64,000 nucleotides of DNA from PVC group bacterium (GCA_024231215.1 JAAEQR010000072.1:449210-513209); one strand, 5' to 3'; shown: positions 2,436 to 53,444, numbered from the stretch's first letter. Notes: generated by a model from the letters alone, not told the origin. Numbers and translations are program-made.

Positions 2436-5003
2436 GTGCGAAAAAAGGAGGGAATATTGTTTGCATTACAGAAAATTAAAAAAATAGATTTTATCCTGAT
2501 TGTTATTATTGTTTCAATGATCGTTATTGCTTATGGCAAAGTCATGGAAGCATCATTTCAGCAGGATGAATGGTATAGTCTGGCTAACTATCAGGTTACA
2601 AAAGATTTTTCTATAATGGAGACTATTCGGTACTTTACGCAAGGAGGGAATGTGTTCCCGCGGCCGCTAAGTTCATCTTTAAGCTTGATAAACTTTCGTT
2701 TATTTGGAATAAATTATGCTTTGTACTATGTTTGTTCTATTTTGACTCATATAGCTGTGAGCTTGTCTTTATATTATATTATTTTTGCTATGACCAAAAA
2801 GCGGGAACTTGCTTTCTTGACTGGGGTATTTTTTGCTATAAGTAGTACCGGTGCCCAGGCGATTACCTGGATAAGTGCCTATTTTGGGTCTGCTCAGTCT
2901 ACGTTTTTTGCTCTTTGGAGCCTGTTTTTTTACTTTAAATATCTTATTGGGGGGCAGGATAATAAGAAGCTGCAATATGCGGCAGTGGGATTGTTTTTAA
3001 TCGCAATATTATTTAAAGAGACTGTGGCTAATTTAATATTAATTTTCCCTTTCATGCACTTAATTCTTGCTAAGAAACGTGGATTGTTTGTTTTTTTAAA
3101 AGAACAGATTCCTTTATTAGTAACAATAGTTGGGTTTTTTCTGATTTTCTTTTCTCCTAGTTTTTTTAAAACTGCGGATAGTTCTATGGTGAGCCAAGCA
3201 GCTTCGGGGAGTAGTAATATAGCGGTATTATTATATCGTTCTGTTACTATTCCTTTTTCTGTTCTTGTTGATGTATATTTCCCTCCAGTATTCTTGTATA
3301 AGTGGAGTGCAATAATTACCCAGCTGGATCACCCATTTTTTTATTCTCAAAAAGGCACAAGTGTATATGATATTTTTATTGGATCAGCGGGGGCTAATCT
3401 AGTAACTTGCTATTTGCTATTAGGAATTTTATCATGTGTAGCGGGAGTATTGTCATATCTTAAAAAACACGATCAAAAGCTTTTTAATATTTTTTTAATT
3501 TTCTTTGGTTTTGTATTGACTGGCGGATTACCGCTTATTTTTGCGTATAGTGCTTCCTTTGCGGTTTTGGAATCAAGATATCTTTATTTGCCAGCAATTG
3601 GAGGAATGTTTATGCTGGCAGTAGCTGTAGATATTATGGGAAAGATGATTGGGAATTTATTTTCTGAAGATTGGAAGGAAACAGTCTATTATTGTTTGAT
3701 TGGTTTGCTTGCAATTGGTTTTTGTATTTTTAATATTCCAAAGATACGAGAGCCGATAAAAGAACTTGTGAGGATTTCTAAGGTGCGTAACTCTATTGTC
3801 GAAGGAATCGGTTCTAACTTGTCTCCTAAATCAAAAAGATTTTTTATTTATACTAAAAGCAATAGATCTTATTATGGGAAGGCTGAAACAATATTGCCAT
3901 TTCAGTGCGGAGCAGGGTATCTTTTGATGACAAGACATAGTATGAATAATGAAATGTTTATTCCGTTGTTGAAAGATAATCATTTATGGGATCTTACTAG
4001 TCAGGGAGTAGCTGAAGCTGACGGGATAGTTTTCGGATACTTCAGAGAATATCCTCTTTTTAAAAAAGCTATTTCAGAATATGAGGTAAAGGCTGAGGAA
4101 TTATATGCTTTTACTTGGGATGGGTATGCTGGGGAATTCGAAGATATTACTATCAGTGAGAGGCAACAGTTACAGGAAATCAAATACTATATAAATAAAG
4201 ATTTTGATAAAGATAGTTTGAAAATTGGTGTTCCAGATGGGAAGACTCGTCGTTTTTATTATGAAGGATTCATGTCTTCCCCGGTTGCAAAAATTGTTAA
4301 TCTTAAAAATGATAAAGAGTGGTTTTTTTGTGATTTTGCTAAAGGTGATGCTCGCAGACCTGAACCGAATACACAGGATTACTATTTAACCTATAAATAT
4401 GGGCTGGAAGATACTTATGGCGGAGCTTTAGTGGTCTATCATCTCTCAGGCAATGGGACAAATATTTATAGTATTCCCGGGGTAGTCTATGGTAAGCAGG
4501 TAGCTGGGTTGCATTATGCTCGAGCTTCGACTGGGGCTGTCCCGAAAAAGATTAGAAGAAAAAATGATGGAAGTATAGATATTGAGTTTGAAGCAACTTA
4601 TAATTCGGGGCAAGGGGTGCAGTTTGGAGCTTTACTTAATGAACCCGTTTTGTATTATATTCCCGGCAAAGGGGTCGAGGATATAGTTAAGGGGATGTAT
4701 GCAAAAGTTGAAGCTGACGGGAAGAAGAAGGCTTACGAGATAAGTTTGCCTGGGCAGCTGAAAACCTTGCGGTCATATTGGGAAAGTGATATATTAAGGT
4801 ATCAACCAAAGGCATTTATAGCCGGGAAAATGATACAAATTGTTAAATGGAGCGGATTAGAGACAAATACTTTGCGAATTGAATTTGCCCAGCCACCGGC
4901 AAAGGGAGCAGAAATTTTGGTTCCTTTGCTGGTTACTTATGCTCCTAAGCAAGAAGATGATAATATACTTATAATGAATTTTGCTGCTTGTGTTGCAAAA
5001 TAA
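2436..5003 (+). CDS. large polytopic membrane protein, putative GT-C-fold glycosyltransferase, with a C-terminal ~245-aa conserved soluble domain paralogous to the next gene
   Basis: About 11 predicted hydrophobic helices in the N-terminal 430 aa. D44-E45 (QQDEWYS, nt 2565-2570) immediately after TM1, as in the catalytic first loop of GT-C enzymes (ArnT/PMT-like). C-terminal domain (aa 598-845) is ~70% identical to aa 626-870 of the following ORF. Confidence 0.55.
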   Translation: MRKKEGILFALQKIKKIDFILIVIIVSMIVIAYGKVMEASFQQDEWYSLANYQVTKDFSIMETIRYFTQGGNVFPRPLSSSLSLINFRLFGINYALYYVCSILTHIAVSLSLYYIIFAMTKKRELAFLTGVFFAISSTGAQAITWISAYFGSAQSTFFALWSLFFYFKYLIGGQDNKKLQYAAVGLFLIAILFKETVANLILIFPFMHLILAKKRGLFVFLKEQIPLLVTIVGFFLIFFSPSFFKTADSSMVSQAASGSSNIAVLLYRSVTIPFSVLVDVYFPPVFLYKWSAIITQLDHPFFYSQKGTSVYDIFIGSAGANLVTCYLLLGILSCVAGVLSYLKKHDQKLFNIFLIFFGFVLTGGLPLIFAYSASFAVLESRYLYLPAIGGMFMLAVAVDIMGKMIGNLFSEDWKETVYYCLIGLLAIGFCIFNIPKIREPIKELVRISKVRNSIVEGIGSNLSPKSKRFFIYTKSNRSYYGKAETILPFQCGAGYLLMTRHSMNNEMFIPLLKDNHLWDLTSQGVAEADGIVFGYFREYPLFKKAISEYEVKAEELYAFTWDGYAGEFEDITISERQQLQEIKYYINKDFDKDSLKIGVPDGKTRRFYYEGFMSSPVAKIVNLKNDKEWFFCDFAKGDARRPEPNTQDYYLTYKYGLEDTYGGALVVYHLSGNGTNIYSIPGVVYGKQVAGLHYARASTGAVPKKIRRKNDGSIDIEFEATYNSGQGVQFGALLNEPVLYYIPGKGVEDIVKGMYAKVEADGKKKAYEISLPGQLKTLRSYWESDILRYQPKAFIAGKMIQIVKWSGLETNTLRIEFAQPPAKGAEILVPLLVTYAPKQEDDNILIMNFAACVAK
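4227..4965. repeat. copy A of a ~740-bp intergenic-distance duplication encoding a conserved soluble domain (paralogous to 6893-7628)
   Basis: Translated segments align colinearly: GVPDGKTRRFYYEGFMSSPVAK...QDYYLTYKYGLEDTYGG...HLSGNGTNIYS...LLNEPVLYYIPGKGV...LRSYW..DILRYQPKAFI...VTYAPKQED versus GIPDGESREFIKQGIMSCPVAK...QDYYLIYKYGFEDTYGG...VTYAPRQED. Confidence 0.8.
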
Positions 5004-9971: not shown

Positions 9972-12449
9972 TTGTTACCTTTGAGCACAAGAGAGTTGCC
10001 GGATAAGAGAAAAAAAATATCTTTTCTTCTTCTTATTGTTGTGATTTTATTCTGCATTCCTTTTTTTTGGAGTAGTCCTAATCACTATAACCTGGGCGGG
10101 GATGATTCGCGTTTGTATTTATATTCTCCGTATGAGTGGCTGCATAATGTAGCATTGTATTCATGGTTTGATATTTCCGGGATATCTTCGTATAACCCCC
10201 AGCAATTTTCCTTTCCTTTTGTCATATTGCTTGCTTTGTTGCAGAAGATATTTTTCTTTCTTAATATCCAAAAATTAGCTTGGGGGCTAACTCTTTCTTT
10301 TGGATTTTTTTCTATATATTTGTTTATCGAAGAATTATTGCAGGATAAAAATAATCTGAATTCTACTATTTCAGCTGCAATCGGAGGGTTGCTCTATGTT
10401 TTCTTCCCGTTAATATTTTATATAGATTGGCCTCAGCCGCTGTACAATCTATATGCTATTGCGGTGTTTCCATCATTTCTCTGGTTTTTTCTAAAGGCAG
10501 TGAATAATGCAGATGTGAGGTATTTGTTAGGTGGTGCAGTAGTAAGCGCGTTATTTAGTCTGGTGATTGTGAATTTCCCGTGGTTTTTACCTTTTGCAAT
10601 TGGAGCTTTTATTTTTCTTGTGTTGTATTGTTTTTTAATTGAAGAAAATAAAGGTAGGCTAGGCTTTTATTTGCTTTTATATGTTTTGTTTTCGATATTA
10701 TTCAATCTTTTTTGGATAATCCCATTGTTGCATTCTATTCTTTTTGGGGGATTTGCCAGCGAAGCTACTGTAGGCGGTGGAGTTAAAGAAGCTGCATTAA
10801 ATGTTATTCATAGTGTGGCACCGTCGATGAATATTTTTGATACGCTTTGCGGATTATTGAGCAGAGAATTGATTTTTGGTTGGAACTGGCCACAGAAAGT
10901 AATTGCGAAGTACACATTCAACTTTTCCGCTTTTAGCGCGTTGCTTCCAGGGGTTATCTTTTTGTCACTGCTAATCAGGCAAGGGAAGGTAAGAACTAAA
11001 AAATTACTGGTAATTTTTAGTTTAATAACAGTAATCCTGGCTTATTTGCAGACTGTTAATATCGGGGGATGGGGAGTTAAATTATTTGATTGGTTAATAT
11101 ATACTGTTCCTTGGTGGACAATGTTGAGGAATTTCTTTAGTAAAGTACCTATTGCCTATGGCATCTTTTTCTCAATTACAATAGGTATAGCTGTTTTTCA
11201 CGTATTAGAACGGATTAATAAGCAAAAAATAAAGAGAATATTTGTTGCCGGACTTATAGTTGTTATTTTAGTTCAGGCTTTGCCCTTTATTTTTGGAAGG
11301 GTTAATGCTCTGCCTGTCTATAATGCGGATATTCCTTTGAACCGAAATATTATTGTGCCGGACTATTATCGAGAGACTACAGAGTATATCAAAAAATTAA
11401 GGGTAGGGCGAGTGTTGACCCTTCCGATGACGTTTGCGACATGGTCAATTTTTAAAAGCTCTTGTGGGAAAGGCTTATATGTGGGGAGTTCTCCGATAAA
11501 AGTTTTTACGGGTAAGGACGATTTTAATGGGAAGATGGGTTTTGAAAGAATCTCGGGTCTGCCGGAGCTGATTATTGATGCTTATCAGAAAGATGCTAAT
11601 GTATTAGGTTATGTTTTTGGAAAATTAGGTGTTCGCTATATGCTTTATAATACGCAGATGGAGAAATTACCGGAGGTTTTAAAGACAGGATGGTTGTGGG
11701 AATACGAAACACTTTCAAATAATAAAAGCATAAAGTCAATTTTAAGTAGTGTGGCAAATGAAAGGTTGGCTGTTTTTGGGCCTTTAGAAATATATAAGAT
11801 CAATGATGAGTTTTTTCTACCGCATATTTATCCTGCTAAAAAGGCAAGTGTAGTAAAAGGAGATATAAGTGCTTTAATGTCTTTATCTGAGGGTATTGAC
11901 TTGGATAAATCAGATGTTTTATTTTTTGAGAAAAACGAAACGACTAAGGGCAAAGGGATATTCTCGGATGAGGGGAGAATAGAAGGAGGTAATAATCCTG
12001 AAATAGTTTTTAAGAAAATAAACCCCACAAAATTTAGCGTAGAAATCAAAAATGCCAAACATCCTTTCTGGCTGGTATTTAATGAAAGGTTTCATGAAGA
12101 CTGGAATATTTATAAAACACAAATATCCGATGCAAATACTCTTAGAAATGATGAGTTATCCAGTTATTCTCAATTTGGGGTAAAAGAATCAGAATACCGG
12201 CTGCAATTTGCCCCGCAGGATTTTAAATTCCTTTTTTTAAAACCAATGGATTTGCAGCATAAGGTTGCTAATGCTTATGCGAACGCATGGTATATAGAGC
12301 CTGAAAACTTTGAGAAAAGTAATAATTTTTCTTTTGTCATATACTTTTTGCCGCAAAGCTTTTTTTATTTAGGATTACTAATTTCTGTTTTTTCGATGCT
12401 TTTGTCGGTGATTTTCATGATTGTTTATAGTATTAAAAGGAGAAGCTAG
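9972..12449 (+). CDS. large polytopic membrane protein, putative GT-C-fold glycosyltransferase (825 aa), TTG start
   Basis: RBS AGGAG at 9961-9965, TTG at 9972. About 12 hydrophobic helices. D44-D45 (GGDDSRLY, nt 10101-10106) directly after TM1, as in Emb/Aft-type GT-C enzymes. Large C-terminal soluble region with a final C-terminal TM helix. Confidence 0.5.
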   Translation: MLPLSTRELPDKRKKISFLLLIVVILFCIPFFWSSPNHYNLGGDDSRLYLYSPYEWLHNVALYSWFDISGISSYNPQQFSFPFVILLALLQKIFFFLNIQKLAWGLTLSFGFFSIYLFIEELLQDKNNLNSTISAAIGGLLYVFFPLIFYIDWPQPLYNLYAIAVFPSFLWFFLKAVNNADVRYLLGGAVVSALFSLVIVNFPWFLPFAIGAFIFLVLYCFLIEENKGRLGFYLLLYVLFSILFNLFWIIPLLHSILFGGFASEATVGGGVKEAALNVIHSVAPSMNIFDTLCGLLSRELIFGWNWPQKVIAKYTFNFSAFSALLPGVIFLSLLIRQGKVRTKKLLVIFSLITVILAYLQTVNIGGWGVKLFDWLIYTVPWWTMLRNFFSKVPIAYGIFFSITIGIAVFHVLERINKQKIKRIFVAGLIVVILVQALPFIFGRVNALPVYNADIPLNRNIIVPDYYRETTEYIKKLRVGRVLTLPMTFATWSIFKSSCGKGLYVGSSPIKVFTGKDDFNGKMGFERISGLPELIIDAYQKDANVLGYVFGKLGVRYMLYNTQMEKLPEVLKTGWLWEYETLSNNKSIKSILSSVANERLAVFGPLEIYKINDEFFLPHIYPAKKASVVKGDISALMSLSEGIDLDKSDVLFFEKNETTKGKGIFSDEGRIEGGNNPEIVFKKINPTKFSVEIKNAKHPFWLVFNERFHEDWNIYKTQISDANTLRNDELSSYSQFGVKESEYRLQFAPQDFKFLFLKPMDLQHKVANAYANAWYIEPENFEKSNNFSFVIYFLPQSFFYLGLLISVFSMLLSVIFMIVYSIKRRS

Positions 12450-13474
12450 TGATAAACTTTAAAAAGATAAGAGATAAACAGTTAGCGTTTTTAATTTCAC
12501 TGATTATTGTTCTTTCTTGTTTTTTGATTGCAGATACTAATTTAGCGAAAAAAGTTGTTAGTGTGGAACGGGAATATCCGGTTAATTCCGAATCGCTGTT
12601 GAAGAAAATACCGTTGCCGATTAAAAGTGATTATGTGGTGAAAATCAAGTATCAGTCTAGAAAGATGATGGGGGCGATGGTTTGGTTAAATCAATATCCA
12701 TTAGAAATGAGGGCGTCTAACGTATCAAATAAATTGAATGTTACATGTTATTATTATGCACCGAAAGACAAAGTAATGCTTGGGGATAATGTTTTCGAAA
12801 TTAAGTTCCACGGAGAACATCCATCAACAGTAACGGTGCGTATGAATAACTACGTTGCAGCAGTAGCAGATAATAATATTATTATTTCACTAGCAAACTC
12901 TGTTTTTAAAAATAAGGCTTGGGTTAAACTTTTCTTTTTTGGGATTATTTTGTTTGGTTGTGTTTTTTGGGTATGGCGGTTTCTGGTTTTTATGGGTATG
13001 GTTCTTTTTCATGAATCATTTCAGAGAAGTACTTTTAACACAGCACTTTCTTTTTCCCCCTGCACGTTATTATTTTTTATTCTTTCGATTAAGTCTTATC
13101 AAGGTCCATATTTGATTGCGATAAGTCCGGGGTATCTTTTATTATTATTTGTTCTTTTAACAGGGTTTACTAACGCTGTTTTAAATCTTATCCATGTATT
13201 AATCTTGAGGAAAGTATTTCCGTCGATTAAGCGTGAGTATATTCTGCCGACAGCTCGGGTGGAGATTCCCCCCTGGCTTATAGGGGGCGGAAAGTGGTTT
13301 AAGAAAAGGAGTTTAGCTGATAAATGCATAATATTCTGTTTATTTGTTTTTAGTTGTTCTGTTTTTCTTTTTATGCTGGGGGTGTCGAAATGGGGAGAGC
13401 CCCTTGCTAACGTAGCATATACCAGCGTACTTATAGGTATTTCCATGAAATTATTTAGCTTAACTAAGAAATAA
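12449..13474 (+). CDS. membrane protein of unknown function
   Basis: ATGA-type coupling to the upstream gene. N-terminal TM helix, ~130-aa soluble segment, then several TM helices. Confidence 0.5.
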   Translation: MINFKKIRDKQLAFLISLIIVLSCFLIADTNLAKKVVSVEREYPVNSESLLKKIPLPIKSDYVVKIKYQSRKMMGAMVWLNQYPLEMRASNVSNKLNVTCYYYAPKDKVMLGDNVFEIKFHGEHPSTVTVRMNNYVAAVADNNIIISLANSVFKNKAWVKLFFFGIILFGCVFWVWRFLVFMGMVLFHESFQRSTFNTALSFSPCTLLFFILSIKSYQGPYLIAISPGYLLLLFVLLTGFTNAVLNLIHVLILRKVFPSIKREYILPTARVEIPPWLIGGGKWFKKRSLADKCIIFCLFVFSCSVFLFMLGVSKWGEPLANVAYTSVLIGISMKLFSLTKK

Positions 13475-20485: not shown

Positions 20486-20896
20486 ATGATTAATAAAAAA
20501 GGTTTTACATTGGTTGAGTTGTTGATGGTCGTTATCATCATTGGTATTTTAGTTACAATCGCTGTTCCTAACTATTTTAGGTCAATTGAAAGAGCAAAAG
20601 GTGGGAAGGCAAAAGCGGCAATAGATGTTATTAGAAAAGCATCTATACAATATAGAGCGTTGAATGATACTTTTCCACCTACTGATATTACTGAGTTAGA
20701 TGGTATGGAAATTCCGGGTAATATGACAGCAGCTACTCCTTTTGATGATGGAGATTGGCAGTATACAGTATCTGGAGATGCGACAACTGTATCAATTGTT
20801 GCAACGAGGAACGCGGGAGAACACAGCACAGAGACTTTAACGATGGACGTGGATGGAACGATCACGAATAGTGCTACTCCTAATGAATGGGATTGA
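20486..20896 (+). CDS. type IV pilin / prepilin with N-terminal cleavage-methylation domain
   Basis: MINKKGFTLVELLMVVIIIGILVTIAVPNYFRS: G-F-T-L-[V]-E class III signal peptide with Glu+5 and hydrophobic N-terminal helix. Confidence 0.85.
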   Translation: MINKKGFTLVELLMVVIIIGILVTIAVPNYFRSIERAKGGKAKAAIDVIRKASIQYRALNDTFPPTDITELDGMEIPGNMTAATPFDDGDWQYTVSGDATTVSIVATRNAGEHSTETLTMDVDGTITNSATPNEWD

Positions 20897-20927: not shown

Positions 20928-20994
20928 AAAATGTGCTATCGATTTATTTGTAAACTACATAACAGATTAAATCGATAGCACATTTTTATTTTTT
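20928..20994 (+). terminator. intrinsic terminator: perfect 19-bp inverted repeat followed by a T-tract
   Basis: AAAATGTGCTATCGATTTA (20928-20946) / TAAATCGATAGCACATTTT (20968-20986), 21-nt loop, then TATTTTTT. Confidence 0.6.
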
Positions 20995-21042: not shown

Positions 21043-22125
21043 ATGCGGATAATTGCTATTGCTAATCAAAAAGGAGGATGCGGTAAAACAACAACAGCCA
21101 TAAATTTCTCTGCGTGTTTAGCTCAGGCAAAAAAGAATGTTTTGTTGATAGATTTGGATCCCCAGGGACATGCGACTTTAGGCTTAAATATAAAACATCA
21201 GGATGTGGATAAGAGCATGTATCATGTTTTGACACCGCAATCCGGTAAAAAAGTCAGACTGGACGAAATTATTTTACCTATTTCTCAGAATTTTGATCTA
21301 GCACCGGCGGATATTCTTTTGTCTGCGATTGAACAAGAACTTTCCGGTAAACCGGAACGGGAAGCTAAGCTGTATCAGGCAATTTCACTTATGGTAACAA
21401 AAAAAACCTATGATTATATTGTTATTGATTGTCCTCCTAGTTTGGGGCTTTTAACTTTTAATGCTTTGCGTGTTTCTGGGGAAGTTATTGCGCCTGTAGA
21501 GACCGGGTTTTTCTCTGTGCATGGGGTAAGTAAACTTTTAGAAATAGTAGATGTGATTGGAAAACGTTTAAAATGTGATATTGCTGTTAAAGCATTAATC
21601 ACATTATTTGATCGTCGCACTAAATTTTCTCAGGAAATAAAAGATGATATTTACAATCATTTTTCCGGACAGGTATTTAAATCTATAATTAATACAAATG
21701 TGCGATTAAAAGAAGCGGCAAGTTATGGTATGCCGGTTATTGCCTATGATAAGCGTTGTCGGGGTTCAGAAGATTATATGGCCTTGGCTAAAGAGGTAAT
21801 ACGTAAATATGATTGGACTAAACCAGAAACAGTGACGGAAACTGTTGGCGGGCCGCAACAAAGCAAAAGTGGAATATTGTTTACATATAGTTCTACCGAA
21901 GCAGGTTCTGTACAGATTGCAGGAGATTTTAATAACTGGGCAGCAGACCAAAAAGATAAATTAGAAACTACAAAAAAGGGTGTTTGGGCTAAAGTTTATA
22001 ATTTGAGGCCGGGGCGCTATCGTTATAAGTTTATTGTTGACGGACAATGGGTTACAGATCCTAATAATCCACAGACAGAAGCTGATGAAATTGGGAACTT
22101 AAATTCTTTACTAGAAATAAAGTGA
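21043..22125 (+). CDS. ParA/MinD-family deviant Walker-A ATPase fused to a C-terminal AMPK-beta / CBM48-type glycogen-binding domain
   Basis: IIAIANQKGGCGKTTTAINFSACLA (KGGxGKT deviant Walker A with signature Lys). ParA-like DLDPQG and VIDCPPS blocks. C-terminal ~85 aa FTYSSTEAGSVQIAGDFNNW...KGVWAKVYNLRPGRYRYKFIVDGQWVTDPNNP fit the AMPK-beta GBD/CBM48 pattern. GGGGAGG RBS. Confidence 0.75.
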   Translation: MRIIAIANQKGGCGKTTTAINFSACLAQAKKNVLLIDLDPQGHATLGLNIKHQDVDKSMYHVLTPQSGKKVRLDEIILPISQNFDLAPADILLSAIEQELSGKPEREAKLYQAISLMVTKKTYDYIVIDCPPSLGLLTFNALRVSGEVIAPVETGFFSVHGVSKLLEIVDVIGKRLKCDIAVKALITLFDRRTKFSQEIKDDIYNHFSGQVFKSIINTNVRLKEAASYGMPVIAYDKRCRGSEDYMALAKEVIRKYDWTKPETVTETVGGPQQSKSGILFTYSSTEAGSVQIAGDFNNWAADQKDKLETTKKGVWAKVYNLRPGRYRYKFIVDGQWVTDPNNPQTEADEIGNLNSLLEIK

Positions 22126-22142
22126 TAAGGTGTGTGTAAAAG

Positions 22143-23072
22143 TTGTCTATGAGCGATTCTAAAAAACTAGGTAAAAGTATAGAAGATATTTCGTATTTGT
22201 TTCTTTCTCCCTCTGGAGAAGATTCTTCCGAACCGGATGATTCTGGGCAGCAGGAAGAAAAAAGCACTTCTATTTTAGAGACTCCAATTAAGAGTATCTG
22301 CATGGTTGGTGGTGAATTTTCTTTTCTTGATGCTTTTCTGGTAATAAATTTATCGTTGGCACTGGCTCGTTTGGGCATGCGTATCGCAGTTGTCGATTTA
22401 GAACCGGAACGTCCTTGTTTGAATTTCTTTTTGGGAACTGATGGTCAAAAAGAAGATTCTAATAATATGAACACAGTTATCAAAGAAGGGCCTTTAGGTG
22501 TTAAACTTATTAGTTTAAATACATCTGCGCTTACGGAACTCTCAAACACCGCAAAGAATAGCAAACTGATTTCTCAATTGAATAAGATAGAAGAAGATGT
22601 GGATTTGATCCTGGTTAATGTTATGCAGCGTAATTTAATGAATATGCATGAGTTGTTGCCTGAGCAGATAAGAGAGTTTTTAGTGCTTACTTATCCGGAT
22701 AAAAATAAGATGATTGAATCTTATCGGACGATGAAGATGATTTCTCAACGTAATCCGTTAACTAAGATTGGTGTGGTTGTCGCTGAGGTAGATCACATGT
22801 ATGAGATAGATGCTGTTTATGATAAGATGTCCGGGGCAGTCAGGAAATTTTTAGATAAAGAGCTTTATAAGGGTGGTTTCTTATTTAAGATCAAGCAGGA
22901 TCTTGATGTTAATGCGACTATTGCATCGTTTTACGATGCAGATCTTACTGCTTGTATTTCAAATATAGCTCAGATTGTTGTTCTACGATTGAATTTAGGA
23001 GAAAATATTGTTTCAAAAGAAGCTTTTTTCAAGAAAATGATTGGCGGATTTAACGCGCAAAGGAAGTTATGA
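22143..23072 (+). CDS. degenerate ParA/MinD-fold paralogue lacking the P-loop (putative pseudo-ATPase partner)
   Basis: SICMVGGEFSFLDAFLVINLSLALARLGMRIAVVDLEPE aligns to the ParA N-terminus (ViaV.SgKGGvGKTT.A.NLa.aLa..Gk+VllIDlD), but GKGGxGKT is replaced by GGEFSF. 18-nt gap after the ParA gene. Confidence 0.45.
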   Translation: MSMSDSKKLGKSIEDISYLFLSPSGEDSSEPDDSGQQEEKSTSILETPIKSICMVGGEFSFLDAFLVINLSLALARLGMRIAVVDLEPERPCLNFFLGTDGQKEDSNNMNTVIKEGPLGVKLISLNTSALTELSNTAKNSKLISQLNKIEEDVDLILVNVMQRNLMNMHELLPEQIREFLVLTYPDKNKMIESYRTMKMISQRNPLTKIGVVVAEVDHMYEIDAVYDKMSGAVRKFLDKELYKGGFLFKIKQDLDVNATIASFYDADLTACISNIAQIVVLRLNLGENIVSKEAFFKKMIGGFNAQRKL

Positions 23073-23746
23073 CCACTATTTTTCGCAAAGCACAAATAGA
23101 TAGAGATAAATTAAGAGATGTAATATTAAAAAACCCCGGAGATATTCAGTCGGAACTTGGTTTTATTGATTTTCAGTTTGGAACGGCAGAAGAAGGGGTT
23201 ATAGATTTCTTGGGTGTAGATAGTACCGGAAGACTGGTTATTATAAATTTCGATACAAAAGAAAACGATGAATTGTTAGTAACGGCATTGAGTCAGATGC
23301 GCTGGTTGAAAAAAAATGAAAACCTTGTGAAGCGGGTATTTTTTAGTGAAAATGTTGATTTCAATCAAGATCCCTTGATCCTGCTTATTTGTCCGGGGTT
23401 TTCCAGGAAATTAATTTCTGCGGCTAAAGAGCTGAGCGGGCATGATCTGAGATTTGTCCAATTTCAATATGTTATCTCGGATGCCCAGGATGCAATATTA
23501 TTTGAGGATATATTTAGCCAGCAGAAACCCGAGATAGAAGATCTTCCAATGCAAAATATTGAAAGTTTAAAGCCGCCAACAATTTTAGAAGAAGTGAAAG
23601 TAACAGATAATTCTATAGTAGATACTACTGTAGAGCTAACAGAAATATCTCCAGAGCAAGAGGAGATTATTTCTCTGACACAGCAAGAGATTGCTGAATT
23701 TATGGATTTCGATAAAATTTTAGAAGAAAAACAGACTTCGGATTAA
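23069..23746 (+). CDS. hypothetical protein, possible PD-(D/E)xK nuclease-like core with strongly acidic C-terminal tail
   Basis: ATGA overlap with the upstream gene. VIDFLGVDSTGRLVIINFDTKEND resembles the D...(D/E)xK strand pattern of restriction-endonuclease-like folds (NucS/YraN-like). C-terminal 90 aa is rich in E/D. Confidence 0.3.
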   Translation: MTTIFRKAQIDRDKLRDVILKNPGDIQSELGFIDFQFGTAEEGVIDFLGVDSTGRLVIINFDTKENDELLVTALSQMRWLKKNENLVKRVFFSENVDFNQDPLILLICPGFSRKLISAAKELSGHDLRFVQFQYVISDAQDAILFEDIFSQQKPEIEDLPMQNIESLKPPTILEEVKVTDNSIVDTTVELTEISPEQEEIISLTQQEIAEFMDFDKILEEKQTSD

Positions 23747-23754
23747 ACCTTCCT

Positions 23755-24504
23755 GTGCAAAGCCAAAACAAATTCATATCTCTGAAAAAAACAGTAAATT
23801 ATTATCAGATAGAAGATGTTAGATTTCCAAATCTTATGTGTGTATTCTCAACGCGCATATTTGATTATAGTTTACATGAAGATTTAGGTGTTCGCCAAAG
23901 CTTTTTTATTGAACTGGGTTTAAAAATAGAGGATAGTATTTTTTTAGAACAGCCCCATCAGGCGAGAGTTTTTAGAGCTAAGAAAGAAGACAGGGGGAAA
24001 GGCGCGGTTGATTTTTATACTCGAGTTCCCGGATGTGATGCGGTGATAACCGAAGAGCCTGGGACAGCTTTATGTTTGTTGACGGCTGATTGTCTGCCTT
24101 TGTTTTTTTTCGTTCCGGGTGAAAAAGTTTTAGGGATTGCTCATGCGGGATGGCGTGGGACTCAGGCGAAAATTGCAGAGACAACAGTAAATAAACTATG
24201 TCAAGAATTCGATTGTTTTGCCGAAAAAATATGTGTTTATATTGGTCCGGGAATAGGCCCCTGTTGTTATCGCGTAGGGAAAGAGTTAAGAGATGTATTT
24301 CCTGATTTTGTTAAAACTCAAAGAGATGGTTTGTATTTTGATCTTGCCGCGGCGAATACTGAGCAATTAGTTGAATTCGGGATAAATAGAGAAAACATTT
24401 ACAGTACAGGACTTTGCACTAGTTGCAAAAATGATAAATTTTTCTCTTATCGTCGGGGGGATAAAATGAAACGTATGCTAAGTGTAGCAATGTTAAAGCC
24501 ATAA
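23755..24504 (+). CDS. pgeF: PgeF/YfiH family (DUF152, laccase-domain) purine nucleoside enzyme / peptidoglycan editing factor; GTG start
   Basis: LTADCLPLFF...LGIAHAGWRGT...IGPGIGPCCYRVG are the conserved Cys/His zinc-ligand blocks of YfiH. Confidence 0.8.
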   Translation: MQSQNKFISLKKTVNYYQIEDVRFPNLMCVFSTRIFDYSLHEDLGVRQSFFIELGLKIEDSIFLEQPHQARVFRAKKEDRGKGAVDFYTRVPGCDAVITEEPGTALCLLTADCLPLFFFVPGEKVLGIAHAGWRGTQAKIAETTVNKLCQEFDCFAEKICVYIGPGIGPCCYRVGKELRDVFPDFVKTQRDGLYFDLAAANTEQLVEFGINRENIYSTGLCTSCKNDKFFSYRRGDKMKRMLSVAMLKP

Positions 24505-24642: not shown

Positions 24643-25689
24643 ATGAAAAAAACCGCAGTTAAAAAAAGTAAATCAACAAAAATTTCAAAGGCTAAATCAA
24701 AATCTGTTGCAAAAACAAAGAAAACAATTTCTCGACGGACGAATGTGAAAAGTGCAGCAAAATTGGTGAAAAACAAAGTGGTAAAACCAGTGCACTCTTC
24801 AGTGGAAACAGAAGTTTTTCCCGCTTTAGCTGAAGGTAAACAGCAGGTAGGAGAAAGTAAGTTTTTTCGGCGGCCAGCGGGAGTTCAGGTTCAGGAAAGA
24901 GATACTTATGAACTACCTGCCGAATATGGCGATACTCGTATTGTAATCCAGGTTCGTGATCCATATTGGATCTATTCATATTGGGAAATTAATGCTGATA
25001 AATGGGCTGGGTTACGCCAGGAATTTGGGGATGTATTAAATTCTGCTAAGCGCATGCTTCGGATCTATGATATTACCGGTGTTATTTTTAACGGGAATAA
25101 TTTTAACAGCTTTTTTGATATCGAAATTAATGATTGCGCAAGTACTTGGTACATTAATGTTGGAACCCCAGGCAGGAGTTATTGTGTAGATATCGGGTTA
25201 TTATTATCAGATGGTAAGTTTATTACTTTGGCGCGTTCAAATTGTGTGACGACTCCATTGGATGGTCCTAGCTCAATTACAGATGAGGAATGGATGGTGG
25301 TAGAGGATGATTTTAATAAACTTTATGGTCTCTCTGTTGGTTTAGGCGTGGGGTTAAGTTCAGCTGATATAAAAAGAAAGATTACGCAAAGATTACAAAG
25401 TGATATCTCTTCCGGGGCAATATCTTCATTTGGTAGTCCGGTTAAAAAGATGGATCAAAAGCGTGGGTTCTGGCTGGTGGTTAATACAGAGCTGATTGTA
25501 TATGGTGCTACAGAACCTGATGCTAAAGTAACGGTTCAGGGCCGCCCGATACAACTGAATAAAGAGGGTACATTTAGCTTGCGTTTTGCGCTTCCCGACG
25601 GAGAACAGACAATCCCGGTAAAAGCAGTTTCCTCAGACGGGGGAGAAAAACGGGTAATTACCCCGATTGTAAATAAGAAAACAATATAA
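24643..25689 (+). CDS. DUF4912-domain protein with a lysine-rich histone-H1-like N-terminal tail
   Basis: N-terminal 50 aa is K/A/S/T-rich (KKSKSTKISKAKSKSVAKTKKT...). Core block RIVIQVRDPYWIYSYWEIN matches the DUF4912 family, which is typically encoded next to GH57 enzymes. Confidence 0.6.
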   Translation: MKKTAVKKSKSTKISKAKSKSVAKTKKTISRRTNVKSAAKLVKNKVVKPVHSSVETEVFPALAEGKQQVGESKFFRRPAGVQVQERDTYELPAEYGDTRIVIQVRDPYWIYSYWEINADKWAGLRQEFGDVLNSAKRMLRIYDITGVIFNGNNFNSFFDIEINDCASTWYINVGTPGRSYCVDIGLLLSDGKFITLARSNCVTTPLDGPSSITDEEWMVVEDDFNKLYGLSVGLGVGLSSADIKRKITQRLQSDISSGAISSFGSPVKKMDQKRGFWLVVNTELIVYGATEPDAKVTVQGRPIQLNKEGTFSLRFALPDGEQTIPVKAVSSDGGEKRVITPIVNKKTI

Positions 25690-25716
25690 GTTATAATATA
25701 GATATATAGTGCCAAA

Positions 25717-25752
25717 GGGGACGGATATAAAACCGTCCTCTTTTTGATTTTT
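25717..25752 (+). terminator. rho-independent terminator
   Basis: GGGGACGG-ATATAAAA-CCGTCCTC hairpin, followed by TTTTTGATTTTT. Confidence 0.55.
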
Positions 25753-25876: not shown

Positions 25877-27457
25877 ATGGAAAAAGGGTATTTATGTATT
25901 GTTTTGCACGGACATTTGCCATATGTGCGGCATCCGGAACATGAGGATTTTTTAGAGGAAGACTGGCTTTACGAAGCAATTACCGAAACTTATATACCTT
26001 TGATCAATGTTTTTGAAAAGTTGATAGATGATAATATTGATTTTCGGATTACAATGGGACTTTCTCCGACGCTTATTACGATGCTTATGGATCCGTTATT
26101 GCAAAGAAGGTACTTAAAGCATTTAGAGAGTCTTATCGAATTGGCCACTAAAGAAGTTGAAAGGACACAGTGGCAGCCGGAATTTCACAAACTTGCATTG
26201 ATGTATCTGGATAAGTTTAAGCTCACGCGCCATGTTTTTGTGGATAAATATAACCGCAATATCATTCAGGCGTTTAAGAATGTTCAGGATGCTGGTAAGC
26301 TGGAGATTATGACTTGCGGTGCTACACATGGGTTTTTTCCTCTTATGCATGTGTGCCGGGAATCGGTCAGAGCCCAGGTTCGCACAGCAGTAGATCAGTA
26401 TAAAAATGTTTTTGGTCGTCCTCCCAGAGGAATTTGGCTGCCGGAATGTGGTTTTAACCCGGGTGACGATGAGGTTTTGAAAGAAAGTGGTCTGCGTTTC
26501 TTTTTCGTCGACAGTCATGGGATATTGCATGGCTCACCACGGCCTAAATACGGTGTTTTTGCTCCGGTTTATTGTAAGTCAGGGGTTGCCTGTTTTGGCC
26601 GTGATATTGAATCTTCAAAGCAGGTATGGAGTGCGGTAGAAGGGTATCCGGGAGATTATAATTATCGCGAGTTTTACCGGGATATCGGTTTTGAATTGGA
26701 TTATGAATATATAAAACCGTATATTCACAGTGATGGTATTCGGGTTAATACTGGGATGAAGTATTATAAAATTACCGGAGAGACCGATGATAAACAGGCT
26801 TATGTCCCGGAGACAGCTATGCAAAAAGCTGCGGACCAAGCTGGTAACTTTATGTTTAACCGGGAGAAACAAGTCGAAGCTCTTTACGATATGTTAAAAA
26901 AGAAACCGATCATTATTTCTCCCTATGATGCTGAATTATTCGGCCATTGGTGGTATGAAGGGCCTGATTGGCTTAACTTTTTAATGCGCAAGATTGCCTG
27001 TGACCAAAAAACAATAAAGATGATTACTCCTTCGGAATATCTGGAGAAATATCCTAGCAATCAGGTGATTACGCCTTCAATGTCTACCTGGGGATATAAG
27101 GGCTATAATGAAGTTTGGTTGGAAGGTTCAAATGACTGGATTTATCGTCATTTGCATAAAGCTTCGGATAGAATGAGTGAATTAGTAAGATCATACCCGA
27201 AGGCCGGAGGCATTACTTTAAGGGCATTAAATCAGGCTTTACGGGAACTATTGCTGGCACAGAGTTCTGATTGGGCATTTATTATGAAGACCGGAACACA
27301 TATTCCTTATGCAGTAAAGAGAACAAAAGATCATTTGCTTAGATTTAATAAGCTTTATCATAATATTAAGTCAAGAAATGTGAATGAGTCATGGCTTAAT
27401 GATCTTGAATATACGGATAACATTTTTCCGACAATTGACTATCGTTTTCATTCATAA
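25877..27457 (+). CDS. glycoside hydrolase family 57 enzyme, most likely 1,4-alpha-glucan branching enzyme
   Basis: N-terminal CIVLHGHLPYVRHPEHEDFLEEDWLYEAITETYIPL is the GH57 branching-enzyme signature (HGHLPYV...). 526 aa, consistent with GH57 GlgB. Confidence 0.8.
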   Translation: MEKGYLCIVLHGHLPYVRHPEHEDFLEEDWLYEAITETYIPLINVFEKLIDDNIDFRITMGLSPTLITMLMDPLLQRRYLKHLESLIELATKEVERTQWQPEFHKLALMYLDKFKLTRHVFVDKYNRNIIQAFKNVQDAGKLEIMTCGATHGFFPLMHVCRESVRAQVRTAVDQYKNVFGRPPRGIWLPECGFNPGDDEVLKESGLRFFFVDSHGILHGSPRPKYGVFAPVYCKSGVACFGRDIESSKQVWSAVEGYPGDYNYREFYRDIGFELDYEYIKPYIHSDGIRVNTGMKYYKITGETDDKQAYVPETAMQKAADQAGNFMFNREKQVEALYDMLKKKPIIISPYDAELFGHWWYEGPDWLNFLMRKIACDQKTIKMITPSEYLEKYPSNQVITPSMSTWGYKGYNEVWLEGSNDWIYRHLHKASDRMSELVRSYPKAGGITLRALNQALRELLLAQSSDWAFIMKTGTHIPYAVKRTKDHLLRFNKLYHNIKSRNVNESWLNDLEYTDNIFPTIDYRFHS

Positions 27458-42020: not shown

Positions 42021-43166
42021 TTATTGAATTAAAGAGGCAATAGTACGAGCTGCATTTTTGTTTGCTCCGGAAGAGCCTAATTTTAATTTTGCCGCGGTTA
42101 ATTGTAATATTAATTGATCGCGGCTTTTTCTATTCTGTTGAAAAAATCTTAAAGAGCATTCTGTAATATTTTTAGGAGTAGCCTGGAACTGAATAAATTC
42201 CTCAACTATTTTTTCTTCAGCCACAACATTTATAAGCCCAATAAACGGAAGTTTAATGAGAAATTTCGATATGCACCAGGTGAAAAGACTGGTTTTATAA
42301 ACGATAGCCATGGGGATGCCTAATATCGCGGTTTCTAGTGTTGCGGTGCCTGAACATACCCAGGCAAAAAAGCAAACACTTAAAAAATTGTAATTATTTT
42401 CTTTAATGACTTGAATGTTTTCAACTGGATATTTATGAAGCAATTCATTAATGAGTTCATCTTTTATGTTCGGAGATTTTATTAATATAAATTTCGTTTG
42501 CGGCATTTTTTGCGCAAATAATTGAGCACTTTTTAACATTACCGGTAATATTCTTTTTATTTCAACTTCTCTAGATCCCGGAAGGAGTCCAATTATCAGG
42601 TCTTTTTCTGTATAGCTTAATTTCTTTAGTAATAATGACTTAGATTGGGTGTTTTTAACTGTGTCTGTTAAGGGGTGTCCGACAAAAGTTACCGGTACGT
42701 TATTACGTTCATAGAGTTTTTTTTCAAACTCAAAAATAACAATCATATGATCGACGATATCTCGTATAAGATGAACACGTTTTTTACCCCAGGCCCAGAT
42801 TTGAGGACTAATATAATAAATTATTTTAACTTGCGGGCATTCTTTCTTGATACGTTTAGCCAGTCTAAGGTTAAAGCCGGGAAAGTCGATAAGAATAATT
42901 GCTTTGGGTTTAGTTTCCTTGACTTTTCGAATTGTCATCTCAAAAATTTGTTTATATATTTTAAGATGTTTTAGAACTTCAATAAATCCAATTACCGCAT
43001 GCTTGGTCAAATCAGCAAATATTTTCACCCCGGCTTGGGACATTTGTTTGCTGCCAATACCTGATATCTTTAGGTTTGGAGATAATGCTTTTAGTTCCTT
43101 TACCAGATGAGATCCATGCATGTCTGCAGAGGGCTCTCCGGCAATTATAAAAATTGTATCATTCAT
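42021..43166 (-). CDS. lpxB: lipid-A-disaccharide synthase
   Basis: N-terminus IFIIAGEPSADMHGSHLVKELK and the overall GT19 pattern. Confidence 0.85.
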   Translation of the reverse strand: MNDTIFIIAGEPSADMHGSHLVKELKALSPNLKISGIGSKQMSQAGVKIFADLTKHAVIGFIEVLKHLKIYKQIFEMTIRKVKETKPKAIILIDFPGFNLRLAKRIKKECPQVKIIYYISPQIWAWGKKRVHLIRDIVDHMIVIFEFEKKLYERNNVPVTFVGHPLTDTVKNTQSKSLLLKKLSYTEKDLIIGLLPGSREVEIKRILPVMLKSAQLFAQKMPQTKFILIKSPNIKDELINELLHKYPVENIQVIKENNYNFLSVCFFAWVCSGTATLETAILGIPMAIVYKTSLFTWCISKFLIKLPFIGLINVVAEEKIVEEFIQFQATPKNITECSLRFFQQNRKSRDQLILQLTAAKLKLGSSGANKNAARTIASLIQ

Positions 43167-44119
43167 TTTTTCTTCTGTATTTGTTTGTTAATGGTTAGGG
43201 CAATTTTTAACGCTTGTTTTGCGTCTTTCCCGCAGACGACAGGGTCTTTGCCTTTTTTGATGCAGTCAATGAAAGAACGCAATTCTTCGGCTAGGGGCTG
43301 TTTTTTTGAAACTTCAATCTCTTTACAGGTTATTTTTGTTCCTTTTTTCTTAAAAAGAGTTATTTTCTGAGATGCATAATCAATACTTATATACGTATCT
43401 TTCTGGAATATTCTTATCTTTCGCAATACATCGTTGCTGACTCTACTGGCTGTAATATTACAGACAGTTCCATTTTTAAATACCAGTCGTGTATTAGCAA
43501 TATCTTCAGAGCGAGAGAGTACTTTTACCCCGACGGCGTCACAGCTTTTTAAGGAAGAGCGGATGAGCGAAAGGACTATGTCTATATCATGGATCATTAG
43601 ATCCAATACTACGCTTACATCAGTTCCTCTTTGAGGATAAGGACTTAATCGGTGACATTCAATGAATTGTGCATTCTTGCATAATTTCTGTACAGCTTTT
43701 ACCGCAGGATTGAATCTTTCTACATGGCCTACTTGTAGGATTTGATTGTTTTTGCGTGCAAGACGAATCAGTTTTTCTGCATCTTCGATTGTTGTCGTTA
43801 TAGGTTTTTCCACCATTACGTGGATATTGTTTTTAAGGAAATATTTAGCGATATCAAAATGAGAGGTAGTTGTAGTGGCAATGCTTACAGCATCGACTTT
43901 ATTTAGGATGTCTTTATAGTTAATAAAGCTTTGGGTATTAAAGTGCTGAGCATTGAGCTTGGCTTTTTCTTCGTCGATGTCACAGATTCCGATCAGTTGA
44001 GTATCTTTAAACTCAGAGTAAATCCGGGCGTGAATCTTGCCGAGATGGCCGGCTCCAATTACTGCTACTTTTATTAATTTCATAATAACAACTGTAGCAG
44101 AGTGTAAAGGGGTTGTCAA
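43163..44119 (-). CDS. Gfo/Idh/MocA-family NAD(P)-dependent oxidoreductase, co-transcribed with lpxB
   Basis: KVAVIGAGHLGKIHARIY Rossmann N-terminus. EKP motif (VMVEKPITTT). ATGA-type overlap with lpxB. Confidence 0.75.
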   Translation of the reverse strand: MTTPLHSATVVIMKLIKVAVIGAGHLGKIHARIYSEFKDTQLIGICDIDEEKAKLNAQHFNTQSFINYKDILNKVDAVSIATTTTSHFDIAKYFLKNNIHVMVEKPITTTIEDAEKLIRLARKNNQILQVGHVERFNPAVKAVQKLCKNAQFIECHRLSPYPQRGTDVSVVLDLMIHDIDIVLSLIRSSLKSCDAVGVKVLSRSEDIANTRLVFKNGTVCNITASRVSNDVLRKIRIFQKDTYISIDYASQKITLFKKKGTKITCKEIEVSKKQPLAEELRSFIDCIKKGKDPVVCGKDAKQALKIALTINKQIQKKK

Positions 44120-52946: not shown

Positions 52947-52979
52947 CTATATACATCCTTGGAAAGGAGTGATTCGAAG

Positions 52980-53444
52980 ATGGAAGTTACAGAGGTTAGA
53001 GTCTTTTTACGGAATAAAGATAGCAATAAAAAATTAAAAGCATATGCTACAGTAACCATTGACAATTGTTTTGTTGTCAGAGATGTTAAAGTTATTGAGG
53101 GCAGCAAAGGACTTTTTGTTGCTATGCCATCTGCAAAGATGAAGTCCACATGTTCTAAATGCGGACATCGCAATGTGGTGCGTAGTAAATTTTGTAATCA
53201 ATGTGGCGGAGTTTTGGAACAACAGCCAATTCAGACTTCATCTAGTCCGGAAGAAAACCGTCAGACAGAACATAAAGATATTGCACATCCGATTACTCCG
53301 GATTGCAGAGAATATATACAGAAGAAGGTATTAGAAGCTTACGATGCGGAAATGGCCAATGCTCCTGTGGCGGAAACTTTCAGCCGGGATGCGGCACCGG
53401 AGGCAATAAGTGAAACAGAACCGGTAAAAGACGCTGAAGTATAA
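52980..53444 (+). CDS. spoVG: SpoVG-family protein with a C-terminal zinc-ribbon extension
   Basis: MEVTEVRVFLRNKDSNKKLKAYATVTIDNCFVVRDVKVIEGSKGLFVAMPS is the SpoVG core. Followed by CSKCGHRNVVRSKFCNQCGG (CxxC-x11-CxxC). RBS GGAAAGGAG 10 nt upstream of ATG 52980. Confidence 0.8.
   Translation: MEVTEVRVFLRNKDSNKKLKAYATVTIDNCFVVRDVKVIEGSKGLFVAMPSAKMKSTCSKCGHRNVVRSKFCNQCGGVLEQQPIQTSSSPEENRQTEHKDIAHPITPDCREYIQKKVLEAYDAEMANAPVAETFSRDAAPEAISETEPVKDAEV

Follow-up and report, generated by a model that had tools for sequence, protein, structure and literature searches.

ParA/MinD ATPases place chromosomes, plasmids, carboxysomes, chemoreceptor arrays, flagella and division sites and, to our knowledge, the cargos described for this family are DNA or protein assemblies only. 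Glycogen is the most widespread carbon store in bacteria, and the spacing, separation and inheritance of bacterial glycogen granules are, as far as we know, essentially unknown. Could ParA-type machinery act on this polysaccharide? The question is raised by a 64,000-nucleotide stretch of DNA (referred to below as the window) from a "PVC group"/Omnitrophota metagenome-assembled genome (GCA_024231215.1, JAAEQR010000072.1:449210-513209), in which three consecutive genes at positions 21,043 to 23,746 encode a ParA-type ATPase fused to a carbohydrate-binding module of the CBM48 family, a second protein of ParA-like fold and a small protein with an acidic tail. An initial annotation, prepared from the DNA alone, had interpreted this triad as a candidate system for the organization of alpha-glucan granules. 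The triad was considered here by computational analysis, namely sequence comparison and structure modelling, covering the 64-kb window and 8-10 kb to either side of each relative locus (loci are cited by L numbers). The granule-organization reading is supported as far as such analysis reaches, and it is considered somewhat probable that the triad corresponds to a ParA-type system that tethers and distributes alpha-glucan (glycogen) granules on the nucleoid. Three independent lines strengthen this reading, namely, a ParB-like peptide on the second protein, synteny extending across phyla and the presence of the same peptide on DUF4912 proteins encoded near the triad in sister genomes.

The ParA-CBM48 fusion

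The first gene of the triad (gene 1; 21043..22125, plus strand) encodes a 360-residue protein comprising an ATPase domain (residues 1-255), a linker (residues 256-280) and a CBM48 domain (residues 281-360). The assignment of the N-terminal portion to the ParA/MinD family in the initial annotation is borne out by a deviant Walker A motif, NQKGGCGKT, that includes the signature lysine, and by ParA profile matches above gathering scores, i.e., Pfam AAA_31 (4e-52; 177 bits, cutoff 27) and CbiA (2e-20; 73.7 bits, cutoff 25.4). The closest PDB entry is Myxococcus xanthus ParA (8RAY; 1e-55, 39% identity), with Thermus Soj and H. pylori Soj also being matched. Functional residues of the M. xanthus protein (PMC12462528) were mapped onto gene 1 via the 8RAY alignment, and their conservation was read from an alignment of 120 fusion homologues. 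In this manner, K10 and K15 of the deviant Walker A motif were found to be kept in 119 of the 120 homologues, as were the catalytic residues D37/D39, corresponding to M. xanthus D58/D60. At the DNA-binding arginine positions, R192 is present in all 120 homologues and an arginine or lysine at position 221 (NVRLKEA) in 118, with R221 corresponding to M. xanthus R238; as the reference pair for non-specific DNA binding, we take R189/R218 of Bacillus subtilis Soj. In the pocket that would accept the central Arg/Lys of a ParB-type partner peptide, Y60 (M. xanthus Y81) is kept in 108/120 homologues and E99 (M. xanthus E117) in 88/120. As judged by these comparisons, the N-terminal domain of gene 1 is an intact Soj-type ParA ATPase that probably binds nucleoid DNA. 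At window positions 21169-21171, His43 replaces the asparagine of Motif 2 (DPQGH vs. DPQGN), this being a signature of the family; the presence of histidine for asparagine at this position may tune the rate of ATP hydrolysis.

The C-terminal domain (21883..22122, plus strand) was aligned to PDB entries 4Y0G, 2F15 and 1Z0M. The initial annotation had recognized a glycogen-binding domain here and had proposed comparison with Pfam profiles as a check. Accordingly, residues 281-360 match AMPK1_CBM (PF16561; 4e-17, 62.5 bits, cutoff 26.8), with CBM_48 (PF02922; 4.5e-6, 27.3 bits, cutoff 22.4) likewise scoring above its cutoff. In the PDB, matches were obtained to the CBM of AMPK beta1/beta2 at about 1e-10 (beta2, 4e-11) and, more weakly, to the plant proteins LSF1 and SEX4 (LSF1, 6.5e-6). 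The segments FNNW, YKF, DGQW and G-x-x-N are all present and align with AMPK beta, at positions that we take to be the AMPK beta1 sugar contacts W100, K126, W133 and N150. Across the 120 homologues, conservation in these columns reaches 90% or more for the two tryptophans and the asparagine, and 70% or more for the lysine/arginine. The domain is thus an AMPK-beta-type glycogen-binding module by sequence, and is predicted to bind glucan. It shares with AMPK beta (1Z0M, 2F15, 4Y0G), PTST2/3, SEX4 and LSF1 not only the CBM48 family and the Trp/Lys/Trp/Asn contacts but also the role of a non-catalytic module that would recruit a regulatory protein to alpha-glucan; unlike in those proteins, the module is here bacterial, cytoplasmic and carried by a P-loop ATPase, rather than by a kinase scaffold, a phosphatase or a coiled-coil. 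The linker separating the two domains spans 21-148 residues across the family, a variability in keeping with a flexible tether.

The conservation of the AMPK-beta sugar-contact residues speaks against the possibility that the C-terminal domain binds another ligand, such as a protein or the precursor of an envelope or secreted polysaccharide, with the ATPase localizing a polysaccharide machine in the manner of BcsQ. Nucleotide-sugar and glycosyltransferase genes and a pilin-like gene are indeed found upstream of the triad, and weak BcsQ profile matches were obtained. These matches, however, reach 61 bits against a cutoff of 158, a terminator divides the triad from the upstream genes, and the upstream synteny is seen in Omnitrophota only. 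As such, this is held to be the least probable of the explanations considered here.

Two partner proteins

The ORF positions given for the triad in the initial annotation were exact (21043-22125, 360 aa; 22143-23072, 309 aa when read from TTG; 23069-23746, 225 aa). For the second gene (gene 2; 22143..23072, plus strand), the start assigned by NCBI is an ATG at 22149, yielding 307 residues, as opposed to the TTG at 22143 that yields 309; the ATG is the likely start. The tight coupling of the triad noted earlier stands in the case of the ATGA overlap between genes 2 and 3, while the gap between genes 1 and 2 measures 17 nt rather than 18.

According to a structure model, Foldseek searches and a motif survey, the gene 2 protein combines a disordered N-terminus with a body of MinD/FlhG fold. 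The N-terminus carries a ParB-like ParA-binding/activating peptide, KKLGKSIEDISYLFLS (22161..22208, plus strand; residues 5-20 of the 307-residue protein). What had been described as a lysine-containing N-terminal peptide is thus refined to a near-invariant motif of the ParB type, predicted to activate ParA. The pattern K-K-L-G-K/R-G-L-E-D-I-S-x-x-F-L-S is near-invariant in 40 of 42 gene 2 homologues, and comparison of 54 loci gave the consensus [KR][KP][KSR]-L-G-[RK]-G-L-[ED]-D-[IV]-S-x-[LFI]-F-L-S, in which the leucine and glycine were seen in 54/54. The latter half of the motif, D-[IV]-S-x-x-F-L-S, is specific to this family and unlike ParB. When a stricter form of the motif was sought among the 1794 ORFs of the loci, 65 contained it, almost all of which either lie directly 3' of the fusion or encode a DUF4912 protein. 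Peptide-bearing gene 2 homologues begin 17-23 nt past the fusion and retain the central lysine/arginine. Activation of ParA by ParB-type motifs requires a central arginine or lysine flanked by aliphatic residues, and these residues also suffice for it (PMC12462528). More generally, partners of ParA/MinD ATPases present an N-terminal charged peptide that serves as a "luggage tag", with the remainder of the protein binding the cargo (PMC10241942), a rule with which the layout of gene 2 fits. Given its adjacency to gene 1, its disordered N-terminus and its basic/aliphatic peptide, gene 2 has the attributes of a ParA partner and is predicted to stimulate ATP hydrolysis.

In Pfam searches, the body of gene 2 falls slightly under the threshold for CbiA (3.6e-5; 24.1 bits, cutoff 25.4), and the homologue from L016 lies above the ParA/AAA_31 thresholds. 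In the AlphaFold model (pTM 0.71), the disordered N-terminus contains one short helix, formed by residues 11-17 and lying inside the peptide. Foldseek comparison of the model with the PDB returned FlhG (4RZ2; E = 4e-12, TM 0.6-0.7) and MinD (1HYQ; 2.5e-11), with FleN also being matched. These matches agree with the earlier description of a ParA-like fold in which the P-loop is replaced by GGEFSF. A GK[ST] P-loop was found in none of 40 gene 2 homologues from several phyla, suggesting that the loss of nucleotide binding is old and stable; since a functional P-loop is absent, gene 2 is considered a pseudo-ATPase and is not classed as MinD. The idea that gene 2 is a recent duplicate of gene 1 was rejected, as significant pairwise similarity is confined to one segment of about 20 residues and the fusion profile hidden Markov model does not match gene 2.

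The C-terminus of gene 2, EAFFKKMIGGFNAQRKL (window positions 23016-23069), is basic-hydrophobic and resembles the membrane-targeting helix of MinD (KKGFLKRLFGG). An "FFKKMIGGF"-type segment is kept at this position among Omnitrophota homologues only, and a hydrophobic-moment metric was not discriminating, given that the membrane-targeting sequence of E. coli MinD itself scores low. If real, this helix would anchor the gene 2 activator to the membrane.

The resemblance of the gene 2 peptide to the ParB N-terminus, the fact that the top PDB matches of gene 1 are chromosomal ParA/Soj proteins and the labelling of relatives as "chromosome partitioning protein" at JGI would all suit a simpler account, in which gene 1 is a plain chromosome-partition ParA (Soj) that has gained an accessory domain, with genes 2 and 3 either being neighbours that have no connection to it or standing in for ParB. 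Indeed, the system shares with chromosomal ParABS (M. xanthus, 8RAY; T. thermophilus Soj, 2BEK) the deviant Walker A motif, catalytic aspartates, DNA-binding arginines and Tyr/Glu pocket, as well as the L-G-[RK]-G-L segment at the N-terminus of the partner. By contrast, the body of the partner is here a MinD fold lacking a P-loop, rather than the CTPase clamp of ParB, the ATPase bears a C-terminal CBM, the position of N64 is occupied by histidine family-wide and the second half of the peptide is peculiar to the family. Moreover, neither the window nor any of the 85 loci yielded a Spo0J-like ParB ORF (CTPase/HTH) adjacent to the fusion, a weak negative as the query sequence was approximate and parS was not searched. 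The family also extends to Desulfobacterota, whose members ordinarily have canonical parAB, which likewise counts against this account. A plain partition ParA is accordingly deemed very improbable.

The third gene (gene 3; 23069..23746, plus strand) encodes a NucS/EndoMS-like PD-(D/E)xK fold (residues 1-150), followed by an acidic, variable linker and a C-terminal helix peptide. Gene 3 has no Pfam match and matches the NCBIfam NucS model at 1e-4, far under the cutoff. Residues 1-150 were modelled at a pLDDT of about 90, and Foldseek returned EndoMS (5GKE; E = 4e-6) and NucS (2VLD; 6e-6). Some 127 of the 225 residues align with the C-terminal half of NucS, the N-terminal NucS domain being missing, and the catalytic E-x-K is represented by N60-F-D62. 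An exhaustive profile search assigned 770 clusters to this domain family; E-x-K is kept in 36 of the 148 top relatives, but no lysine is present in the fusion-linked clade. On the basis of sequence and model, gene 3 is a dead NucS-like nuclease domain. The tail had been described as extremely acidic, and does contain 20 D/E as opposed to 5 K/R; the proposal that the protein is McdB-like, on the other hand, gives way to that of an inactivated NucS-like nuclease domain.

Beyond a stretch of about 50 unalignable residues of acidic linker, gene 3 ends in a near-invariant helix, LTPEEIAEFMDFD, within which all of 21 homologues share E207, E210, F211 and F214. The conserved C-terminal peptide, LTQQEIAEFMDFD (23675..23713, plus strand), is a candidate docking motif, and a similar motif is present in the non-Omnitrophota homologue of L037. 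NucS proteins use a C-terminal peptide to dock onto the sliding clamp, and from its conservation the helix of gene 3 likewise looks like a docking peptide. Gene 3 and NucS/EndoMS (2VLD, 5GKE; Foldseek about 5e-6) thus have in common the C-terminal nuclease-domain fold and a conserved C-terminal peptide, with gene 3 differing in its lack of the N-terminal domain, in the change of E-x-K to N-F-D and in a peptide unrelated to clamp-binding motifs. Gene 3 strictly co-occurs with gene 2-like partners. An apparent gene 2/gene 3 fusion ORF (L032:2298-3365), which would have amounted to Rosetta-stone evidence, was discarded as an artefact, the public record having a masked N run where the two genes meet.

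Distribution of the triad and its glycogen gene neighbours

To define relative loci, a profile search of 185,579 species-representative genomes was conducted, using a five-sequence alignment as query. The ParA-CBM48 fusion was detected in 386 of these genomes and is also represented by more than 120 protein clusters, a recurrence which argues that the architecture is not due to chance. Carriers belong to Omnitrophota, Thermodesulfobacteriota/Desulfobacterales, Desulfomonilia, Nitrospirota, Eisenbacteria, Acidobacteriota and other groups, and include Desulfosudis oleivorans and Desulfocicer vacuolatum. At 35 loci, representing at least four phyla, the fusion is followed by gene 2-like and gene 3-like sequences together, such that the triad, as anticipated, is syntenic as a unit; all three genes are present in Omnitrophota, Thermodesulfobacteriota, Desulfomonilia, Nitrospirota and other groups. 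In Desulfobacterales, gene 3 is absent and the partner is a protein of 120-190 residues that bears the same peptide and, optionally, a Cys-rich segment. As the type of partner varies among lineages, the conserved core consists of the ParA-CBM48 fusion and a peptide-bearing partner.

The short Desulfobacterales partner (L051-L053, L057, L058, L061-L064, L080) lies directly after the fusion, and contains, in addition to the optional CxxC...C...C segment, a conserved C-terminal domain of about 70 residues with no Pfam match. At nine loci, the next gene encodes a conserved 230-residue protein (L004:5864-6556, L068:5250-5951), also with no Pfam match; the L004 version of this protein was considered as a gene 3 homologue and rejected, showing no similarity. 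In a divergent clade (L017, L022, L028, L071, L076, L081, L084, L085; 36-43% identity over the C-terminal 165 residues), the fusion is preceded, at a distance of 5 nt, by the end of a gene for a conserved protein of about 246 residues to which no function is assigned, and the downstream gene carries no peptide. The ORFs satisfying the stricter motif some 1.2-1.7 kb 3' of the fusion in L076 and L081 encode secreted proteins with a fortuitous GKKLGRGISN and were not retained as partners.

The genes downstream of the triad in the window had been named as pgeF, a DUF4912 protein with a polycationic tail and a GH57 branching enzyme, and Pfam and NCBIfam matches agree with each of these assignments. 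The DUF4912 protein (24643..25689, plus strand) contains DUF4912 (1.5e-37) and Glucodextran_B (1e-7) domains, preceded by a polycationic N-terminal tail of 90 residues, with 19 K/R among the first 55. The GH57 1,4-alpha-glucan branching enzyme (25877..27457, plus strand) matches Glyco_hydro_57 (5e-42) and BE_C (9e-40), as well as NCBIfam branching-enzyme models (3.5e-101 and 6e-90), the latter below their equivalog cutoffs. The block formed by the triad, pgeF, DUF4912 and GH57 is conserved in Omnitrophota. GH57 also adjoins the triad in the Thermodesulfobacteriota loci L016, L019 and L023, where a convergent cluster encoding a stand-alone AMPK1_CBM protein, GH57, DUF4912 and a glycogen-synthase-like glycosyltransferase abuts the triad; that of L019 holds a second GH57. 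The stand-alone AMPK1_CBM/CBM48 proteins (L016:6337-6642, L019:6373-6669 and L023:6422-6781, all on the minus strand) are about 100 residues long and join a basic, Lys-rich N-terminal tail to a glucan binder, their genes being located between the triad and the GH57/DUF4912/glycogen-synthase-like cluster.

The ParB-like peptide was not found in the DUF4912 protein of the window. It is present, however, in the DUF4912 proteins of five sister Omnitrophota loci (L008:7758-9230, L014:11024-12466, L006:11122-12660, L012:5806-7350 and L013:4209-5891), where the peptide, KKLGKGLEDISHLFLS, sits within a K/R-rich N-terminal extension of 220-300 residues (e.g., KKLGKGLEDISHLFLSS). Its occurrence there suggests DUF4912 to be a candidate second adaptor, acting on the granule side. 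No solved structure of, or relevant literature on, DUF4912 was found.

The synteny of the triad with branching enzyme, synthase-like glycosyltransferase and DUF4912 genes, and the ParA-binding peptide on DUF4912, could also reflect a role in granule biogenesis or size control. Here, an ATP-bound dimer, being bivalent in that it carries two CBMs, would cross-link or cap particles, or serve as a scaffold for GH57, the synthase and DUF4912, with the nucleoid being inessential. Plant CBM48 scaffolds, namely PTST2/3, control starch granule initiation, offering a precedent. Yet, the DNA-binding positions R192 (120/120) and R/K221 (118/120) would be needless without nucleoid binding, and an ATPase-stimulating peptide implies a dynamic cycle of the kind typical for positioning systems. 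Biogenesis or size control is thus considered unlikely.

The triad could instead be a glycogen-sensing regulator, in which CBM48 reports on the store and modulates a ParA whose cargo, for example a region of the chromosome, the site of division or some protein complex, is defined by genes 2 and 3. Such a regulator would couple the cell cycle or cell organization to carbon reserves. In its favour, the CBM is closest to those of AMPK beta subunits, in which it has a regulatory role; the ParA domain strongly resembles Soj (39% identity to a chromosomal ParA) and keeps the DNA-binding arginines; gene 3 has the fold of a DNA enzyme; and glycogen genes are not near most non-Omnitrophota loci. Nonetheless, a flexible linker of 21-148 residues fits tethering better than it does allosteric coupling, DUF4912 proteins whose genes neighbour that of the branching enzyme bear the ParA-binding peptide, and glycogen clusters abut the triad in two phyla. 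On these grounds, sensing is regarded as quite unlikely, and granule tethering and distribution is retained as the preferred reading.

Proposed mechanism and genomic setting

In the mechanism proposed for granule tethering, ATP-bound dimers of the fusion would bind nucleoid DNA, such that the two CBM48 arms of each dimer could hold multivalent glycogen particles on the nucleoid. The gene 2 peptide, of which a dimeric pseudo-ATPase body would probably display two copies, with gene 3 as a putative co-factor, would trigger ATP hydrolysis and so release the tether. Repeated cycles of tethering and release would spread the granules, avoid their clumping and allow daughter cells to inherit them. Where DUF4912 bears the same peptide, it may be an activator on the granule side.

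Several observations weigh against this proposal. Outside of Omnitrophota, glycogen genes are not adjacent to the fusion at most loci (Desulfomonilia and Desulfobacterales types), and, going by gene content, beyond two phyla the glycogen link would be carried by CBM48 alone. A minority clade of fusions has no peptide-bearing neighbour. Within gene 1, the catalytic asparagine corresponding to M. xanthus N64 is a histidine in 115 of the 120 homologues, and two pocket residues depart from chromosomal ParA, E82 being replaced by H/D/N and D110 being aligned to no acidic residue. Furthermore, canonical ParA ratchets have the activator, and not the ATPase, attached to the cargo, and a motor fused to its cargo binder does not fit that scheme of a diffusion ratchet, unless modified; with the cargo-binding module on the ATPase, directional positioning does not follow automatically. 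Whether the gene 2/gene 3 complex resides on the granule, on DNA or at the membrane decides between a ratchet, a regulated tether and an exclusion device.

A further reading is that of an "inverted" ParA system, in which the motor would stay permanently on glycogen by way of its own carbohydrate-binding arm and the pseudo-ParA/dead-nuclease activator would be located elsewhere, on DNA or at the membrane, where it would set granule release or exclusion. Such an arrangement is possible, albeit unlikely. If true, it would constitute a new logic of ParA organization and the first active positioning of a storage polysaccharide in any bacterium, one both ancient and widespread, with carriers in at least 386 species.

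The tethering system proposed here is clearly of the ParA/MinD positioning kind, what is new being the class of cargo, the placement of the cargo binder on the ATPase and the pairing of a pseudo-ATPase with a dead nuclease. Like McdA/McdB, PomXYZ, ParC/PpfA, FlhG, MipZ and BcsQ systems, it consists of a ParA-family ATPase encoded beside a partner with a charged N-terminal "luggage tag", and, as with McdA/McdB and other orphan ParA/MinD systems, the cargo would not be DNA and the nucleoid is the presumed matrix. In contrast to those systems, a polysaccharide cargo is proposed, recognition lies on the ATPase rather than on an adaptor, and there are two accessory proteins, the pseudo-ATPase and the dead nuclease. 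PhaF and PhaM are passive tethers that link PHA/PHB granules to the nucleoid for the purpose of inheritance and involve no ATPase cycle. The proposed link between storage granule and DNA is comparable, and the histone H1-like polycationic tail of those proteins finds a possible analogue in the DUF4912 N-terminus; the polymer and the binding domains differ, as does the presence of an ATPase cycle. Neither a literature search, subscription journals being mostly uncovered, nor the survey of PMC10241942 yielded a ParA that bears a carbohydrate-binding domain or acts on a polysaccharide; the initial annotation had likewise been aware of no ParA system with such a cargo.

Should the preferred reading hold true, bacteria would actively organize their glycogen stores much as chromosomes and carboxysomes are organized. 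A module comprising a motor and a glycogen binder renders granule spacing and inheritance testable, with some of the carriers being culturable Desulfobacterales. A natural fusion of cargo binder and ATPase is, moreover, of relevance to engineered positioning systems, a stable pseudo-ATPase would serve as the body of an adaptor, and DUF4912, an uncharacterized companion of GH57 branching enzymes, would gain a first functional handle.

In terms of transcription, the 5' boundary of the unit is given by an intrinsic terminator (20929..20993, plus strand), a long AT-rich hairpin with a T-run that ends the upstream pilin-like gene. The strong upstream terminator reported earlier was not picked up by a simple terminator scan because of its long loop, and was recovered by RNA folding, with a stem of about 19 bp, a T-run and a free energy of -40.5 kcal/mol (z = -6.6 vs. 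shuffles). A second strong intrinsic terminator, with an 11-bp stem that includes six GC pairs and is followed by a T-run, lies after the DUF4912 gene (25714..25743, plus strand) and is the probable 3' end of the transcription unit. Between these limits, gene 3 is separated by 8 nt from a gene of the pgeF/YfiH family (23755..24504, plus strand; Pfam Cu-oxidase_4, 5e-57; TIGR00726 above cutoff). As pgeF occurs at 12 loci, all of the Omnitrophota type, it is a probable operon passenger. Directly upstream of the triad, on the far side of the terminator, the small pilin-like protein encoded at 20486-20896 carries an N_methyl motif; its gene is syntenic in 10 Omnitrophota loci and bears no obvious relation to the triad.

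A scan of the 64-kb window revealed no further glycogen or partition genes. The remainder of the window contains surface-polysaccharide, isoprenoid/lipid, type IV pilus and housekeeping genes. In the surface-polysaccharide region, ORFs of 855, 825 and 341 residues (2436-5003, 9972-12449 and 12449-13474, respectively) have no Pfam match at E <= 1e-4. A SpoVG homologue of 161 residues (52959-53444) matches the 82-position SpoVG profile in a manner spread across residues 8-129, with a zinc-ribbon-like insertion at about residues 65-83. Across positions 1-64000, nearly all genes are found on the plus strand, large minus-strand genes being seen only at 42021-44119 (lpxB and an oxidoreductase), and GC skew is positive in all 2-kb bins (0.06-0.34). 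Skew and strand bias are together consistent with the window lying within one replichore that shows a strong leading-strand gene bias.

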